Shown: positions 2,819 to 61,150 of the stretch, in pieces
Layout of the letters: each line of letters starts with the position of its first letter
How positions within the stretch are numbered: the stretch's first letter is position 1
Source of the DNA: Octopus vulgaris
Taxonomy: Eukaryota
Length of the DNA: 64,000 bases
Direction: 5' to 3'
NCBI GenBank assembly: GCA_951406725.2
Contig: OX597819.1
Coordinates: 92,442,001-92,506,000, forward strand
The notes under the pieces: model-generated
Told to the model about the DNA's origin: nothing
Database searches by the model: none
The model's input: only the letters and a program-made list of their open reading frames with translations
Made by a program: the position numbers and the translations under genes

Positions 2819-3458
2819 CTGGATTATCAGATTCTGGGTTGTCCATTTATATAATGTTCTTCGTAGGGGTAAAACATTTTTTTTTTTTGTTTGCTGCCCT
2901 CACACGACTTTGCCAGTATATACACATCGAAGCTTTTTTATATCGTCGTAAATGTATCGACTGCTATTTCCAGTAAACATTGGTGCTTTGTTGTACCACT
3001 ACTCTAATTCGCGAATCTGTTGGTTATAATAATAAAATTATACGAAGTTAATATAGAACCAGTGAGCACAATTTTATTGGCCAAATACCCGTCAAAGATG
3101 CAATATTTATATATTTATCCTTGATGAATATGCATAACTAATAATATATATTATACATTTTGAATATTTAGAGTAATATATAACGGGAAACATGTATTTT
3201 TCTTACAATTTCGCAAATATATATTTTAGTATATATGGCAGTTGTATATATTTTAGTTGTACCATTTATATATACATACTTAAGTTGTACCATTCCAACC
3301 GGGGATTGGAATAAGAACGGGGAAGGTTGTGATGTAGTAAAAGAAAGACAAGAAGAGCAGCATTTTACTATTTGCACCGCTATAGACCTTATGAACTATC
3401 AACAAATGAGTGTTTCTTTTCTTAGAAACTTTTTATAAAGAAATTATTATATATTATA

Positions 3459-3497
3459 GGCGCAGGAGTGGCTGTGTTGTAAGTAGCTTGCATACCA
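3459..3497 (+). mobile_element. 5' head of a tRNA-derived CORE-type SINE (family A), split by a 2.4-kb insertion
   Basis: GGCGCAGGAGTGGCTGTGT.GTAAGTAGCTTGC matches the start of the intact copy at 60746. Confidence 0.85.
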
Positions 3498-5911
3498 TTC
3501 ACGGATGCGCGTTGGCGAGTTACTTGCTACAGTGAACAAGGGAAGACATGGACCTGTTTAGCTCCGTTTTAGAGAAAAAGGCGTCGTGAAGGGAAGAGAT
3601 TTTTTTTTTTATGAGCTGGGTAGAAGTGTTGTCTTATTTTATTACAGTATATTCAGTCCTGCTCTGAGGGCATTTTCGCTTACTCTTGGCGGTGAATTTG
3701 TTGCTTGTTTCGCAAGCAAAGTGTGAGAGCTGTAAAGGAGCCGGAGTACCATTGTGGCCTGACTTTTTTTTTCTGCCTGGAACTATATATATATTTATTT
3801 ACTCTTTCTGAACTATTGTTTTTCCTTTCTCTTTCTTTTAATATTATTTTCATTTCTTCCGCCTTCATTGAAGACGTATAGCTGTTTAGCTCCGTCCTAG
3901 AGAAAAAGGTCGACGTCAGGATGAGCGATTTTGTTTTCACTGAGCTGGTTAGAATTGTTGTTTTATTTTTATTACAGTATATTCTGCCCTGCTCTGGGGC
4001 ATTTTCGCTTACTCTTGGCGGTGAATTTGTTGCTTGTTTTGCAAGCAAAGTGTGTGTGGCTTGTTGCCGGTGAGCTTGTTTGAACAGCACGAGAAGCAAG
4101 CCGGAATTTTTTGACGTAAATTGTTGTTTTTCTACAGTGGAGAAAAATTGAAGAAGAATTATTGTTGTTTTCAAAACAACTAAGAGATTTCGAAAACTAT
4201 GGATTTGAAGAAAAGATGAAATTTCTTTTTTTTTTTTTGCTTAGTTACGAGCAAAGAACTGGATTTTATCATCAAATTGAGAGCTGCAAAGGAGCCGGGA
4301 TCGAATAGGGCCGGAGTACCATTGTGGCCTGAATTTTTTTTCTGCCTGGAACTATATATTTTTATTTACTCTTTGCGAACTATTGTTTTTCCTTTTTCTT
4401 TCTTTTATGAACTATTTTTGGTAGGAACTATCATTTTCATTTCTTCCGCCCTTATTGAATAGTTTTCTCTATTTTTCCTGTGTTTATAAATTTTGTTTGT
4501 TGTTTATTTTATGTGGATATTTTAATATGAAGGAAAATAAGGCCACCCCTTTGGAGAGGAAGAAGGTGGTACTACGCACCTATTCTAGGTCGCATGACGC
4601 CATCGACAAGCGTATCATTGATAAAGAACTGTCAGAATGTTTGCCAGCAAAAAAGTACTTTGTGTCCAGGGGTGTCAGGTATGCAACGGTGTGGTTGCTA
4701 TTTGACACCCCTGAGATAGCTTGCACTGCGGCAAGTCAACCCCTAGAAGGAGATGAGATTTTGTTCCTTCCCACATATTGTGGGAAGAATATAACGAGGA
4801 CTTGGGTATGTGGGCTGCCGCCCGGTATTCAGTCTGAATGGACAGAACAGACCATTCGTAGAGGTCTGAGCGGTAGCGGAACCAAGCTCCTCAGTGTCAG
4901 GGTGGAGGCCGCGACCGATTGGGCAGCGTCAAAAGCAGTTCTGAGCCTTTGGACCCAGTCGGCCGGAGACCTAGTATTCCCTGAATATTTGGTTATGGCC
5001 GGGGCCAGGTATCCGGTGATTCTTACGGGTCGCCCCCCTCCCCCAAGTATCACCTGTGCCTGGAACCACGCCACATCAAAACGAACTGCCTCCACCCCAT
5101 TGAAGGGGGAGGCGGAGGAAGTAGTGGAGGCGGTTGCCTCCTCGAAAAGGAAAAGAAAGGCGAGTAACAATGTTGTTCACCAAAAGACATACAGGTTGCG
5201 GGAGAAGAGGCAGACCTCACGGATAAGCCGATAGAAGCCCTGAGTATCGCAAGCCCAAAGAAGAGAAATAGAAGAAGAAAAAGAAAAATGGGAGACGGTC
5301 GGCATAGGTTGATGTGCCGCCGACAGATCCCAATGATCTGCCGGTGGGATGTGTGCCACCGGCAGAAAAGACTCCGTCGGTGGAAATTGTGCCACTGACA
5401 GAGCAGTCTGAAGCCCCCCCCCCGTGAGGAAGAGGTGGAACCCGTCATTTTCTATCACAAGGGAGGGGCTCTCGAGGGATTTTTGAACGGGCTTCTCGAC
5501 CGACAACGTTACGACTCGGTCTGCATTGACTGTCCACGCTGGCTTCCGCAGGTGGCTGCAGAGGTCATAACACATAAAGAACATTTTGAGGTCATAGTGA
5601 CCTTTGCAAAAAAAGAATTTGCTTTTCTCTTTCCGGGCACCGACCTGCCGCTGCAGGCTTCCCAGCAGGCGGCAGGAAACCTATGCAGGGGCTCGGATGA
5701 GAAAGAGGAAGATTAAGAAAAATTTTGTAATTTTTGTGATTTTTAGAGTAAAATTGAATAAAAGAACAGTGATTTCGAGGGTTAATCGGTCGGCTGGCGC
5801 CAGTGCCCTTCTCATTTTTCTTCATCATTATCATCCTCATCTCATTAATATCTTTGTCCCGCCCGCACCTACTTATCTGTGCACGGCTTTCATGGGCAAT
5901 TTAATTAATAA
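3498..5911 (+). mobile_element. ORF1-only (HAL1-like) non-autonomous non-LTR retroelement, Tx1/L1-like
   Basis: Flanked by a 17-22 bp duplication AAGTAGCTTGC(A/T)TACCA (3481-3497 / 5912-5928). It ends in TTAATTAATAAA, has an about 1-kb repetitive 5' region and one frameshifted ORF. No RT or endonuclease motifs. Confidence 0.75.
4527..5716 (+). pseudogene. Frameshifted gag-like ORF1 (RRM-like region, CCHC zinc knuckle, basic/acidic tail)
   Basis: ATG at 4527 opens MKENKATP..TWVCGLPPGI..FPEYLVMAGARYPVILTGRPP. After a shift in the C-run near 5040 the frame reads (Y)HLC-LEPR-H-IKTN-C at 5048-5089, a CX2CX4HX4C knuckle with the first C mutated. Further shifts link it to ORF 5435-5716. Confidence 0.75.
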
Positions 5912-6048
5912 AAGTAGCTTGCTTACCAACCACATGGTTCCGGGTTCATTCCCACTGCGTGGCGCCTTGAGCAAGTGCCATTATAGCCTCGGGCCAACCA
6001 AAGCCTTGTGAATGGATTTGGTAGACGGAAACTAAAAGAAGCCCGTCG

Positions 6049-6096
<48 letters not shown>

Positions 6097-6270
6097 TGCA
6101 TGTATATTTGTTTGTGTGTCTGTGTTTGTTCCCCCAACATCGCTTGACAAGAGATAGTGATGTGTTTACGTCCCTGTAGCTTAGCGGTTTGGCAAAAGAG
6201 ACCGATAGACAAAGTACAAGGCTTACAAAGAATAAGTCCCGGGGACGATTTGCTCGACTAAAGGTGGTGC
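5912..6270 (+). mobile_element. SINE family A, remainder of the split copy
   Basis: B-box-like GGTTCATTCCC, CORE-like GTGGCGCCTTGAGCAAG, internal TA/TG tract, collinear with 60746-61150. Confidence 0.9.
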
Positions 6271-8698: not shown

Positions 8699-9204
8699 CA
8701 TACATACATACACACTTGCGCACACGCGAATAGAAAGAGGGCTGTAATTATGGAAAAACTTTGAAAGCGACCAGAAAATTCGTGTGTATATCTGTATACA
8801 TGGCACAGAAAGACAGGGAGGTAGAAAGTGAGCGTGTACGTATACATGTGTGTGTTCGTGGTGTTTGTGCAGAAGAGAAAGACGGAGTAAAATTAAGATA
8901 TTCAAGAACAAGAAAACTAGAAAAATAAGTAGGGATATTAGGTAAGAGAGAGAAAAGGAGGGGGAAAAGCGAGAAAATAGAGAGAGAACGAGAGAGCAAG
9001 TTTGTCGAATTGTTAGAGATATTGTTGCGAGTGGGGTGTTACGAATGGATGCAACATAAAGGTCAAAGCGATGCAATGGAAGAAGTAAAGAAAGGATATA
9101 TCAGGCGGGCATATTTCTGAAATAATCTGAATAAGCGAGAAATGTATCAGAGACGGGAGGCAAGTGAGAGGGAATAAATGGAAAAGTGATAGAGGGAGAG
9201 GAAG

Positions 9205-9248
<44 letters not shown>

Positions 9249-10124
9249 AGAGAGAGTGAGAGAGAGTGAGGGGGAATTAGGGGTAAGTGTGATAGATAGA
9301 TAGATAGATAGATAGGGTGAAAGGGAGATGAAAATATTTGCTGTTGGAATTTAAATCTTCGTGGAAGAGGTGGGTGAATAAGGAAAAGTGTAGACCGGTG
9401 ATAAACTGAAAGCTTTTGAGCGTCTGGGAAGCGGTATATATGACGGTATATATAACTCCATGAATGTATGCACGTATTAGCTATACATACGACATATATA
9501 CCTATAAACATATGTGTGTGTATATATATCTACACACGCATACACGTACATACATGTATACACACAGATACACATATATTAACCTGTATACATACATCAA
9601 TACTTGCAGACACATATATTAATATTACAGACTACAATTCTTTCTGCGCTGTAATCACACATTTGTTTAATCCCCATACATATATTTAATCTTAACACGG
9701 TCTACCCGTTGAGTTTGCTCTCTCAGCGAATAAATACCTCCCTTAGAAGAACTAAGATAAAACTGCTTAGATTCATGTTCGTCTATGTACTATAAATGTA
9801 TGTATTTGTGTATTTGTGTTTATATATATATGTGTGTGTGTCTCCGTCTGTCTACGCACAACTGGAGTACAAATAAGTGTTTACTTTAGTAAGTACGTAT
9901 TTGTCTTTTATATACTGTTGGAACACGACAGCGCCAAAATCGACCTGACATTCCTGGTACTTTAGTATTTAAGTACCTGGTTCTCTTGAATCCTGCAAAT
10001 TATGCATGTATATATATTTATATATATATATACATGTGTGTATATATGTATATATATATGTATATACATATATGTATATATATGTATGTATATATATGTA
10101 TATGTATGTATATATATATATATA

Positions 10125-10170
<46 letters not shown>

Positions 10171-10273
10171 TATATGTATATATAAAAAAGGGCGAATTCA
10201 CAAAAAAAGACGAAGTTAAGTGATATAGACAACAAACTGATGAATCAGTTTAACGTTCGGGAAGTGAGAAAGT

Positions 10274-10310
10274 CTTTAACGTTTCGAGTTTTACGCTCTT
10301 CTACAGAAAG
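10274..10310 (-). ncRNA. Minimal type-I hammerhead ribozyme, A6U core variant
   Basis: The minus strand reads CUUU-CUGUAGA-A-GAG(cguaaaa)CUC-GAAA-CG-UU-AAAG, with palindromic stem III ACGU. Confidence 0.7.
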
Positions 10311-10984
10311 GAACACAGAAATAAACAAGGAGAGAAAATAAAGAATGTGTAGTGGCTAGCGATTTATCATGGCGAATGCTGGACAGAGGGGTCACACAGG
10401 AGAGCTAGGAAGAAGGGAGATAATAAAGTAGAGGTGATCCCAAAACGAAGGTACGCGTTCGTGTGTATAAGAGAGCATGAATATGCGTGTGGAAGAGGGC
10501 TGGTGATCTTGATGTGTGCGTGTGTGGATGTGTAGGTGTGTGGATGATTGTGTGGAGCTGGGAAGTGGTCAGTACTAGTGTGTGCGTGGTGGTGTGATGT
10601 TATGTGGTGTTGTGTGTATATGGTGGTGTATGGTGTGGTGATCGGATATGAGGGAGGCGAGAGTGGGGAAAGCAAGGGTAGGGTGTGGGTTAGGCTAAGG
10701 TTGGGTTAGAGGTGGGGTATGTGGGTTAGGCTGAGGATGGGGCAAAGGTTGGGTATGTGGGAGTGGGTGTAAAGGATGGGGTGTGGTGGGGATAGATAGG
10801 GAAGGTGCGGCTGGATTTTATTTGGGTGGGGTTAAAAGGAGGTATGAAGATGAACGGAGAGGGAAAGGGAGAAAATGGGTAAGAGTGAAGAGAGAAGGAG
10901 AGTAGGAGTCGGAGCAAGAGAGGAAAGGTGGGTGGGAGGAAGTAGGTGTGAGAGGAAGAGAGGAAGGTGGAGGAGGGTTACATG

Positions 10985-12600
10985 AAGAGGGGAAGGGAGT
11001 TGAGCCCATGTGGTGCAAAGGAGCGAAGAGAGAAGATTAATCCCTGTTCACGGCGAAAACGGGAGTCCGGATGGCCCCTAGACAAAGACATTCAGAACAA
11101 AGACAGGTGTTGCAAAGAAGGATCGGTAGAGCGGAAATGGCACAAGACCGAGGTGTCATTGCCGAGTCGGATGTCTCGGAGGCGTCCCGATGTATAGAGA
11201 AGAGTAGAGAGAGTAGGAGATGCAGTAGATGACATTGGTAGAAGTGCAGGTGAAGGAGTCGGGGATATGATAGGGTGGATGATGGGTGCCAGTGTGGCAG
11301 TGTGGCAGCGTGGGTGGGAGCAGGTGAACGAGCCGGGTTGTGAGGTTGGGTTAGGGAAGAAGCTGTGGGCCAAGAGGTATCATAGGTAGTGGGATCCTTT
11401 GAAGAAGGAAAGGGGTCGGTTAGGGAAGATGTACGAAGTGGAGTGGTCGGACTGGAGATGCCGAAGGCTCGGAGTATGGTGTGCTTGAAAGGTAGGGTGG
11501 TGTGGTGGTAGGTGAAAAGAAACGGGAGACGTGAGACGGCAGGCCGGGTGTTGGGGAAGAGAGCAGGTGTACGGTCCACGGAACGTGCTCTGGCAAGGGC
11601 GGTGTGGATAGTAATGAGGGAATATCCACGTAGGATGAAGTGGCGAGCAGTGAGTTGAGACTGAGTCGCAAAGTCATGGTCGTCACTGCAGAGCCTCTTT
11701 AGACGGAGGAATTGGGAATAGGGGATAGAAAGCTTGGTGTGCTTAGGGTTGGAGGAGGAGAAATTGGGGTATGAGTGTGAGTCTGAGTGCTTTTAGTGGA
11801 TGAAGGTGGTGAGACTGGAGTGATGAATGCCGGCTGAAATGTCATGAAAAGAGATAGAGGTGTCAGAGATATTGCAGGAGAAGTGGAGGGCAGAAGGGAA
11901 AGATTTGATAAAAGAGCAGAAGAGTCCAGTTGTTCGCGGGAGAGTCAGGTCGCACCGATGCATTCGTCAATATAACGGCCGTATAGTTCGAGAGTGGGAC
12001 TAGTAAAACTTGAGAATATTTGGGCCTCAAGGTAGCCAATGAAGAGGTTCGCATAGTTGGAGCCCTTTCTGGTTCCCATAGACACTCCCGGAAATCTGCT
12101 GGTAAAAATCACCAGCGAACGAGAACAGTTGAGTGAAAGGACAAGTTCGGCCAGACGAACGAGTGTGGATGCGACTGATTGGTCGTTGGGTCGTAGGTTA
12201 AGGAATTACCGTGTAAAGGATCTGGATGTCGAGAGTGAAGAAAAGGTTAGAAGGACCAGGAGGGAAGAAGAAAGAGTTGAACAAATGAAGCAGATGGTTG
12301 GTGTCATGAATGTGAGAGGGAAGCGAAACCACGAGCGGGCCAAGGATACTGTCAATATATCTGGAGATGAGTTCGGTGGGGCAGTTGCAGGTTGAGATAT
12401 CGAAGGGCCGAGAGTTCGGCTGGGGAGATGTTGAGATGACGGGGACGCCTGGAAAAGTTAAACCGGTCCACAGCACGTTGGTAGGCGCCCGCAAGAAGAT
12501 CGACTGCTTGGAATTGGCCAGGAGCTGGCATCCACTGGGATGGTCGGCGACCCAGGTCAGTGAAGCAGTCTTCCTCATTAGATGCAGGTGGAGTGAGGGA
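10985..12600 (-). pseudogene. Penelope reverse transcriptase + GIY-YIG endonuclease (frameshifted)
   Basis: CNCPTELISRYIDSILGPLV..LPSHIHDTNH..FTLDIQILYTVIP (12198-12400); GVSMGT..NYANLFIGYLE (about 12025-12090); LYGRYIDEC (about 11960-11990); FTCTSTNVIYCI..LYIG (about 11180-11255); C-terminal LIFSLRSFAPHGLN (about 11000-11040). Confidence 0.92.
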
Positions 12601-12802
12601 GATGAAGCGCAGACCCCCTACTGAATAGGGGGCGTTCTGCCTCAGAAGGGGGAAGATCTGGAGGAATGGTAACAACGGACTGAAGCAGAGAAGGGGTCGA
12701 TGAGATAGAAATAGTAGATGGGATAGAAGTAGGATGAGTAGTGGGTATGGTGGAAGGCTGGGAAGGAGGGAGGGAATGGGGAGTATATGTGTTCAGGGTT
12801 TA

Positions 12803-12966
12803 GGCGGAGGAATGGCTGTGTGGTAGGTAGCTTGCTTACCAACCAAATATTTTCGGGTTCAATCCCACTGCGTGGTACCTTGGGTAAGTGTCTTCTACTA
12901 TAGCCTCGGGCCGACAAAAACCTAGTGAGTGGATTAGGAAACTGAAAGAAGCCCGCCGTATATATG

Positions 12967-20438: not shown

Positions 20439-20601
20439 GTGCAGGATTGGCTCCGTGGTAAGTAACTTGATTATCAACCACATGGTTCCGGATTCAATCC
20501 CACTGCGTGGCACCTTTGGCAAGTGTCTTCTACTGTAGCCTCGGGTCGACCAAAGCCTTGTGAGTGGATTTAGGGGACGGAAACTGAAAGAAGTCCGCCG
20601 T
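20439..20601 (+). mobile_element. SINE family A, 5' half (followed by an unrelated SINE-like tail at 20608-20708)
   Basis: GGATTCAATCCCACTGCGTGGCACCTTTGGCAAG..GAAACTGAAAGAAG. Confidence 0.88.
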
Positions 20602-37942: not shown

Positions 37943-38332
37943 TACTTTTATTATTTTGCTTGTTTCAGTAAGTTAACTGCGGCCATGCTGGAGCAATGCC
38001 TTTAGTCGAAGAAATCGACCCCAGAACTTATTCTTTATAAGCCTAGTACTTATTCTATCGGGGTCCCTTTGCCGAACCGCTAAGTTACGGGGACCTAAAC
38101 ATCGGTTGTTAAACGATGGTGTGGGGACAAACACACACACGCAGATGCATACATGCATACATACTCACAAACACACACGCACACACACGTATAGACATGC
38201 TTCTTTCATTTCCCATCTACCAAATCCACTCCAAAGGCTATAATAAAAGACACCCTCCCAATGTGCCACGCAGTGGGATTGAACCCAGAACCACGTGGTT
38301 GAGAAGCAAGCTTCTTACGACACCGCCACGCC
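37943..38332 (-). mobile_element. SINE family A, with internal deletions
   Basis: Reverse complement of 60746-61150 (GCCACGCAGTGGGATTGAACCC; CGGCCATGCTGGAGCA). Confidence 0.9.
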
Positions 38333-38425
38333 TATATATATATATATAAATACATACACACACACTCATATATACATATAGATAGATAGATAGGCATTCA
38401 CTCTCACACACGTGTAAGTGTAAGC

Positions 38426-44091: not shown

Positions 44092-44245
44092 CGTGCGTAG
44101 CTTTGCAGTTAAGAAGCTTACTTCCGTACCATATAGCTTTGAGATGTGTCCCACTGCGCATCAACTTGGGCAAGTGTTTGTCATTATAGTCGTCTCAGGC
44201 CCATCGAATGGCGAATGGATTTGGTAGGCGGAAAGTAAAACACAT
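44092..44245 (+). mobile_element. SINE family A, decayed 5' half
   Basis: GTCCCACTGCGCATCAACTTGGGCAAGTGT..GGATTTGGTAGGCGGAAA. Confidence 0.7.
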
Positions 44246-60074: not shown

Positions 60075-60519
60075 TACTACTTTCCTTGTTTCAGTCATTG
60101 GATTGCGGGAATGCTGGTGCACAGCCTTGAAGGGTCTTGAAGGAAGAAATCGACCCCAGAATATTGTAAATCCTAGTACTTATTCTATCGGTCTCTTTTG
60201 CCGAACCACTAAGTTACGGTAAAATAAACGCACCAACAATTGTTGTAAAGTGGTATGGGGTTGGCAAATACAGGCACAAGAGGCACACATAGATATAAAC
60301 ATACATATACACATATATACATACGCACACACACTCACACACATAAACACACACACACACACATATATATATGTATACGGTGGGCTTCTTTGAGTTTCCT
60401 TCTACCAAATCCACTCACAATTCTTTTGTCAGCTCGTGGCTGTATTAGCAAACACTTGCCCAAGATGCCATGTAGTGGGACTGAACTCGAAACCTTGTGG
60501 TTGGAGAGCAAGCTTCTTA
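60075..60519 (-). mobile_element. SINE family A
   Basis: Reverse complement of 60746-61150. Confidence 0.88.
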
Positions 60520-60735: not shown

Positions 60736-60745
60736 TATACACACA

Positions 60746-61150
60746 GGCGCAGGAGTGGTTGTGTGGTAAGTAGCTTGTTTACCAACCACATAGTTCTGGG
60801 TTCAGTCCCCCTGCGTGGCACCTTGGGCAAGTGTCTTCTACTATAGCCTCGGGACGACCAAAGACTTGTGAGTGGATTTGGTGGACGGAAATTGAAAGAA
60901 GCCCGTCGTATATATGTATATATATATGTATGCGTGTGTGTGTTTGTGTGTCTGTGTTTGTCCCCCTAGCATTGCTTGACAACCGATGCTGGTGCGTTCA
61001 TGTCCCCGTTACTTAGCGGTTCGGCAAAAGATATCGATAGAATAAGTACTGGGCTTACAAAAGAATAAGTCCCGGGGTCGAGTTGCTCGATTAAAGGCGG
61101 TGCTCCAGCATGGCCGCAGTCAAAAATGACTGAAACAAGTAAAAGAGTAA
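60746..61150 (+). mobile_element. SINE family A, full length (reference copy)
   Basis: GGCGCAGGAGTGGTTGTGTGG A-box region, GGTTCAGTCCC B box, CORE-like GTGGCACCTTGGGCAAG, internal microsatellite, AAAAGAGT tail. Confidence 0.93.

Follow-up and report, generated by a model that had tools for sequence, protein, structure and literature searches.

An ORF1-only retrotransposon family that targets a SINE in Octopus vulgaris, traced from a decayed copy

Non-autonomous LINEs that retain an ORF1 are described in several clades, namely HAL1 (L1 clade), HeT-A (Jockey) and Ag-Sponge (CR1), and HAL1 is reported in the same sources to have arisen several times in mammals (PMC5786205, PMC5753468). Tx1-clade elements that target other transposons are listed in PMC4494074 and comprise Xenopus Tx1L in Tx1D, the crocodilian Tx1-Mar with its SINEU passengers, and Tx1-8_Crp, Tx1-4_AMi and Tx1-9_AMi. 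The Type I ORF1 of Khazina and Weichenrieder, with one or more RRMs just upstream of a CCHC knuckle, is described as consistent with the Tx1 elements of non-mammalian animals (PMC4120745, PMC5203782). The accessible text of the octopus repeat annotation names L1-Tx1 families and gives neither structure nor target for them (PMC13282606). In the accessible text of the literature searched, no SINE-targeting LINE with ORF1-only passengers was found, and none such in cephalopods; Repbase, Dfam and the Zenodo library lay outside this search, so the sequences may be deposited there.

Here, an insert at 3498-5911 of a 64-kb stretch of O. vulgaris DNA (the window) is described. It is a decayed, dead member of an ORF1-only, SINE-targeting retrotransposon family. 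We consider it very probable that it is a full-length copy of a non-autonomous, non-LTR family with one base of a SINE head as its insertion site, whose copying there likely falls to the endonuclease and reverse transcriptase encoded by a LINE of L1/Tx1 type with the same target. Like HAL1, HeT-A and Ag-Sponge as their sources describe them, the octopus family encodes ORF1p alone, keeps a LINE 3′ end and would depend on an autonomous LINE. Unlike these three, again as described, it has no poly(A), a strict single-base target within a SINE, a mollusc host and an ORF1 about 30% identical to that of its partner. It also lies outside HAL1 in the strict sense, whose ORF1 derives from the mammalian L1 ORF1p (Transposase_22). 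The preliminary description had taken ORF1-only HAL1 elements to be known mainly from mammals; HeT-A and Ag-Sponge are ORF1-only LINEs of non-mammalian hosts, insects included (PMC5786205). With the octopus family, the range of ORF1-only non-autonomous LINEs comes to include a mollusc host and the L1/Tx1 lineage with its Type I ORF1.

The bounds first given for the insert were retained (Table 1), and its target repeat, first given as 17-22 bp, was revised to about 15-17 bp across copies; in the window copy the 17-bp direct repeat has one mismatch and a 22-bp version has three. Sister copy L002 opens with the identical 5′ sequence and has the same layout. Two duplications are found inside the 5′ UTR, 3542-3725 versus 3870-4054 (86%) and 3740-3840 versus 4310-4407 (92%). 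The extent of the ORF, from the ATG at 4527 to the stop at 5716, the short remainder at its 3′ side and the lack of a reverse transcriptase agree with the preliminary description. The single frameshifted ORF reported there does not, as the frame changes five times (near 5040, 5088, 5171, 5290 and 5420), meets a TAG stop at 5305-5307 and has lost 42, 9 and about 58 nt relative to the sister copies. The CCHC knuckle of the preliminary description is here a remnant reading Y-x2-C-x4-H-x4-C, in which the first residue is Tyr and not the Cys seen in 5/5 aligned sisters. An AATAAA is indeed present, at 5907-5912, with its last A being the first base of the downstream repeat, and a poly(A) tail is absent. 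Six sister copies are 87-90% identical to the window copy, which would correspond very roughly to 15-19 million years at the rate that PMC13282606 quotes, 0.0036 substitutions per site per million years. The 64-kb window showed no further remnants of ORF1 or ORF2. At 8800-12000 the window is markedly G-rich (GC skew up to 0.78), probably because of simple repeats.

Table 1. Coordinates of the window copy and of the SINE parts flanking it
Feature	Positions	Strand	Evidence
Left part of host SINE head	3458..3480	+	Matches an uninterrupted SINE copy (positions 1-40) at 95%
Left target repeat (TSD); distal half may partly travel with the element	3481..3497	+	Repeat comparison
5′ UTR, about 1.03 kb	3498..4526	+	L002 shares the 5′ end and the layout
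ORF1 remnant of about 396 codons with 5 frameshifts, 1 stop and 3 deletions	4527..5716	+	Sister alignment
Predicted RRM 1 (bounds approximate); this copy lacks the N-terminal 14 codons	4527..4790	+	L106 model residues 14-104
Predicted RRM 2, approximate bounds	4791..5030	+	L106 model residues 105-185
CCHC knuckle remnant, first Cys to Tyr, out of frame with the RRMs	5048..5089	+	Sister alignment
3′ UTR, 195 nt, no poly(A)	5717..5911	+	
Mutated remnant of anti-target motif (complementary to target site)	5865..5874	+	
3′ hairpin, 4-bp stem, 5-nt loop, common to autonomous LINE; one pair broken here	5885..5897	+	
Right target repeat (TSD), start of SINE right part	5912..5928	+	
Right part of host SINE (microsatellite, body; end approximate)	5912..6270	+	87% to positions 24-156 of uninterrupted copy; same continuation in other loci

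The flanks of the insert are the two halves of one SINE head, a feature missed in the preliminary description. The uninterrupted head gave 59,851 exact 32-nt matches in the genome, that is, at least 59,851 empty sites. Motifs resembling the A and B boxes of a tRNA-derived SINE head were seen by eye, the A-box-like one at 3469-3479 in the left part and the B-box-like one at 5943-5953 in the right part. The insertion parts the two motifs and would silence that SINE copy. ARAGORN found no tRNA in the window, and Rfam, run on L101, gave no tRNA match, only sub-threshold matches to simple repeats. Six more copies or fragments of the SINE head occur in the window, at 12802-12950, 20441-20592, 38201-38333, 44110-44240, 60386-60519 and 60745-60900. 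The matches that start near the target base (44110; 60519, minus strand) have no element tail upstream.

A DNA search of the genome gave 51 matches from the 40 scored of 1,848 candidates, and 30 loci were fetched. A protein search scored the top 150 of its 8,777 candidates, all at least 59% identical, and about 110 of these 150 were fetched. In the fetched loci 131 distinct ORF1 units were counted, after exclusion of a unit (L109, p3786) that belongs to another family. In 114 of the 131 units the element ended at the target 338-1405 nt (median 882) past the knuckle, and in 0/131 did an ORF2 start follow the knuckle within 1.5 kb. The remaining 17 units were not placed by the script; three were settled by eye, two had too little sequence and the rest were truncated or rearranged. 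Eighteen units have intact ORFs of 395-427 residues, and a C-terminal domain and a block of 3′ UTR are common to all ORF1-only subfamilies. The proposal of a protein-coding, non-autonomous ORF1-only family, made before any search, is borne out by these counts; a deletion in a single copy would have required other copies with an ORF2 after the knuckle, and among the 131 units no ORF2 start was seen within 1.5 kb of it. Reverse transcriptase fragments adjoining L006, L018, L027, L028, L163 and L180 were considered as the family's ORF2 and rejected, being outside the element; two ORF2 fragments close by belong to separate elements lying past the SINE. The young subfamilies are covered by contigs from four runs that are merely presumed to be RNA, and this was not counted as evidence of expression.

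Nearly all family copies are located at the same base of the SINE head. The target followed 16/16 exact tails in the window subfamily, AAG followed 649/702 exact tails in the wider group, and exact tail-plus-target junctions numbered 755 versus 0 for the control. Copies with their own target repeats and a common ORF1-to-3′ UTR junction had been suggested as a check, and besides the 114 units ending at the target, 74 copies had both flanks for comparison. Their two flanking repeats agree at 74-99% at positions 1-15 and at about 20-45% from position 16 on, and the T/A variant of the SINE is the same on both sides in 73/74. Among eight young copies the median identity was 99.1% for the element, 93.2% for the SINE part and 52-57% for the outer flanks. 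A fixed 3′ end, 5′ truncation, TSDs and independent flanks are thus all present as signs of retrotransposition.

Both SINE parts flank most copies (76/131 units), as would also be expected if the mobile unit were a composite in which a SINE had captured an ORF1 and the flanks travelled with it. Some subfamilies (L023/L024/L026; L134/L150) moreover have derived letters in the left repeat only, so the RNA may bring along the distal half of that repeat. A composite unit is nevertheless very improbable. Identity is much lower between the flanking SINE parts than between the elements (93% versus 99%), private variants are found on both sides of the insert in L105 and L176, and unrelated elements sit at the same junction. 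Above all, 5′-truncated copies (L009, L029, L188, L221, L223 and L226) still adjoin the SINE left part and repeat, by which a composite is largely refuted. The truncated copies, the greater divergence of the flanks and the matching T/A variant argue for separate insertions.

Pfam on three pieces of the window ORF gave no useful match and no RRM, and on intact relatives it gave no RRM, no Transposase_22 and a zf-CCHC below the cut-off. The RRM-like region of the preliminary description was thus not seen by Pfam in the window copy, but appears in the fold predicted for an intact relative. The structure model of the L106 ORF1, built from a 9-sequence alignment with pLDDT mostly 70-84 over residues 21-200, has two RRM folds ahead of the knuckle, at residues 14-104 and 105-185. 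Foldseek matched the model to the tandem RRMs of hnRNP A1 (E 1.7e-5), and by VIA residues 14-104 matched the La RRM (Z 9.1, rmsd 2.8, 84 aligned) and residues 105-184 the RRM1 of U2AF65 (Z 8.1, rmsd 2.2, 71 aligned). The family ORF1 is accordingly predicted to be of Type I, with two RRMs directly before the CCHC, in the sense of PMC4120745. This predicted arrangement is unlike the coiled coil-RRM-CTD order of the mammalian L1 ORF1, and differs from Type I as described in its sources by a single knuckle, the lack of a leader and an extra C-terminal domain. The RRMs start about 14 residues from the N-terminus, the leader of 50-90 residues found in autonomous ORF1s being absent, and the C-terminal domain measures about 90 residues.

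The nearest relatives of the family ORF1 are octopus LINE ORF1s. An intact relative matched LINE ORF1s of the same genome at E 1e-21 to 1e-30, a host-gene match was not found, a search for homologous proteins brought up one relative, and the named relatives (6 of ten looked up) were all from Octopus species. One of these, P0001 of Octopus sinensis, is annotated as an uncharacterised gene with three isoforms, and P0002 as 'EPM2A-interacting 1-like'; both are probably mis-annotated retroelement ORF1s. Taken at face value, the P0001 annotation would favour a processed pseudogene or a domesticated host gene. This is very improbable, given that at least 131 units lie dispersed at one and the same target site, that the ORF is homologous to LINE ORF1s and that the tail is of LINE type without poly(A), and for the window copy it is refuted.

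Purifying selection on ORF1, which a dN/dS comparison had been suggested to reveal, was evident. Over codons 1-205 the median dN/dS was 0.18 (range 0.10-0.51; 8 intact ORFs, giving 27 pairs whose dS exceeds 0.1), the pairs being non-independent and dS saturating at values up to 2.4. In the same 8 ORFs dN/dS was 0.40 in the linker and 0.45 in the C-terminus. In the phylogenetic tree the 11 family rows came together as one clade (support 100/100) whose stem is long, at 1.96 changes per site; their identity to autonomous ORF1s is 26-32%. The tree omits L115, L075, P0001, P0004 and P0006, which have no full knuckle or core, and the partial L065, and it neither places the family among the autonomous ORF1s nor resolves the roots.

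The reverse transcriptase fragment next to L006 led to full-length LINEs. In 10 of 20 fetched RT regions a LINE of 5.0-5.4 kb is enclosed by the same two SINE halves, and in one further region only the right half is seen. This LINE has an ORF1 of up to 466 residues with a CCHC and an ORF2 of 1,133 residues with Exo_endo_phos, RVT_1 and zf-RVT domains, whose best PDB match is the human L1 ORF2p (E 1e-66; R2 E 1e-19). Its insertion is sequence-specific, at the same SINE base as the ORF1-only copies. It shows the features of the Tx1 clade, with two ORFs, an APE, an RT and a C-terminal zinc motif in ORF2, and membership of the L1 group. We infer from its Type I ORF1 and its target specificity that it is a Tx1 element; the ORF2 search matches included no named Tx1. 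As in the Tx1-clade elements of PMC4494074, an APE-type LINE has a sequence-specific target in a mobile element, passengers at the same target and tandem insertions one TSD apart. Unlike those elements, for which that source gives DNA or LTR transposons, snRNA genes and microsatellites as targets, the octopus LINE targets a SINE head, and the octopus passengers, unlike theirs, are protein-coding.

An autonomous LINE with the same 3′ end had been called for, and a candidate partner with the 3′ hairpin tail in common was thus found. The young 5.4-kb L1/Tx1-type LINE is the likely driver lineage of the ORF1-only family. Older autonomous lineages occupy the same site (L257, L258, L261, L262). The hairpin loop letters of one of them (L258, L261, L262) are identical to those of the window subfamily, which makes this lineage the likelier driver of that subfamily.

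All SINE-targeting autonomous copies with a visible ORF1 carry the other ORF1 type, 22-36% identical to that of the ORF1-only family. This argues against repeated internal deletions of an unsampled or extinct full-length LINE with the same ORF1, in which the selection would have acted. Rare or decayed copies of such a parent, joining this ORF1 type to an ORF2, may lie outside the 150 of 8,777 candidates that were scored, of which about 110 were fetched, and the long stem branch would accord with such a parent. Derivation by repeated deletion is still quite unlikely, as all subfamilies share the 3′ UTR block and the C-terminal domain, young subfamilies with near-identical intact ORFs have no ORF2, and a dN/dS of 0.10-0.23 persists among close ORF1-only lineages (L102 versus L111, L112 and L120). 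A protein-coding family propagating without an ORF2 of its own is therefore preferred.

At L109 (1-1487 and 3457-4966), L108 and L277-L296, a second family of ORF1-only elements was detected. It measures about 1.5 kb, has a leader at the N-terminus and the same hairpin tail and SINE target, and ends at the target in 14/20 loci, in six of which another element follows. Its ORF1 lies outside the clade of the first family and is 39-44% identical to autonomous ORF1s; ORF2 was thus probably lost at least twice. In this respect the octopus resembles mammals, where repeated origins of HAL1 are described, in that ORF1-only families number at least two, separate from each other. Stacks in which up to four units follow head to tail, involving both ORF1-only families and the autonomous LINE, occupy one SINE with single repeats between the units (L106, L107, L108, L109, L110 and L174), and the stacks of L108, L109 and L110 are mixed ORF1-only and autonomous. 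The unbiased sample gave weak support for an excess of stacking, with 3 clear stacks in 60 junctions versus about 1.2% expected (p about 0.04). Passengers on a LINE and the LINE inside a SINE make up a three-level nesting.

At the 3′ end of the partner LINEs and of the ORF1-only families alike stands a 4-bp hairpin, with a short A-rich stretch after it. The stem pairs in 92% of cells in 16 aligned tails; one change on both sides of the stem in the window subfamily is a single event inherited by 3 rows. A LINE found in (TC)n microsatellites, L055, has a similar hairpin and GAAATA end, so the common target, and not the tail alone, names the partner.

An anti-target motif, AGCT(A/T)CT, complementary to the target, was present in 97/167 junction tails versus 1.3% of shuffles, 42-47 nt from the element end in the ORF1-only family and 79 nt in the LINE. 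Its variable letter matched a T-type target in 77/78 cases and an A-type target in 10/19 (Fisher p 7e-8, inflated by kinship). In folds of read-through RNA the motif paired with the downstream repeat in 5/7 examples, L106 and the mutated window copy being the exceptions. A 7-10 nt tail motif of this kind would pair with the displaced target strand or with read-through RNA, aid the opening or priming of the target and switch its letter with the SINE variant, in a long-lived community of protein-coding passengers, with a deeply diverged ORF1 lineage of their own, competing for one ORF2p and one SINE site; we hold this extended scenario to be doubtful. The motif is not required for targeting, because in one older subfamily the T-type motif persists at A-type targets, in the youngest large subfamily the motif contains an additional base, and the second ORF1-only family lacks it yet inserts at the same site.

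The common target and 3′ hairpin point to mobilisation of the ORF1-only family in trans by the autonomous LINE. In the copying scheme, which is modelled on established target-primed reverse transcription, the ORF1-only RNA would make its own ORF1p, a presumed chaperone, which would package the same RNA. The partner ORF2p would bind the 3′ hairpin of this RNA, nick the bottom strand between GGT and AAG and reverse-transcribe the RNA, leaving a repeat of about 15 bp. The SINE left part and the new repeat would together rebuild the landing site, by which stacks of units would become possible. Two questions are made directly testable by the young intact copies of driver and passenger and by a 30-nt target that exists tens of thousands of times: why a passenger retains an ORF1p of its own, and how an endonuclease of APE type, perhaps with the help of RNA, turns site-specific.

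Further LINE arrangements were noticed among the fetched loci. At L205/L206 (G000:C1:111116888-111116971), two very short 5′-truncated tails of the autonomous LINE adjoin in opposite orientation in SINE heads. A related full-length LINE, whose ORF2 measures 1,138 codons from stop to stop and whose hairpin and GAAATA end are similar, lies inside (TC)n microsatellites in L054, L055 and L062, as does Kibi in the account of PMC4494074. Another related full-length LINE forms a tandem array in L060 (1-9501), with a period of about 5.3 kb and a junction sequence of its own.
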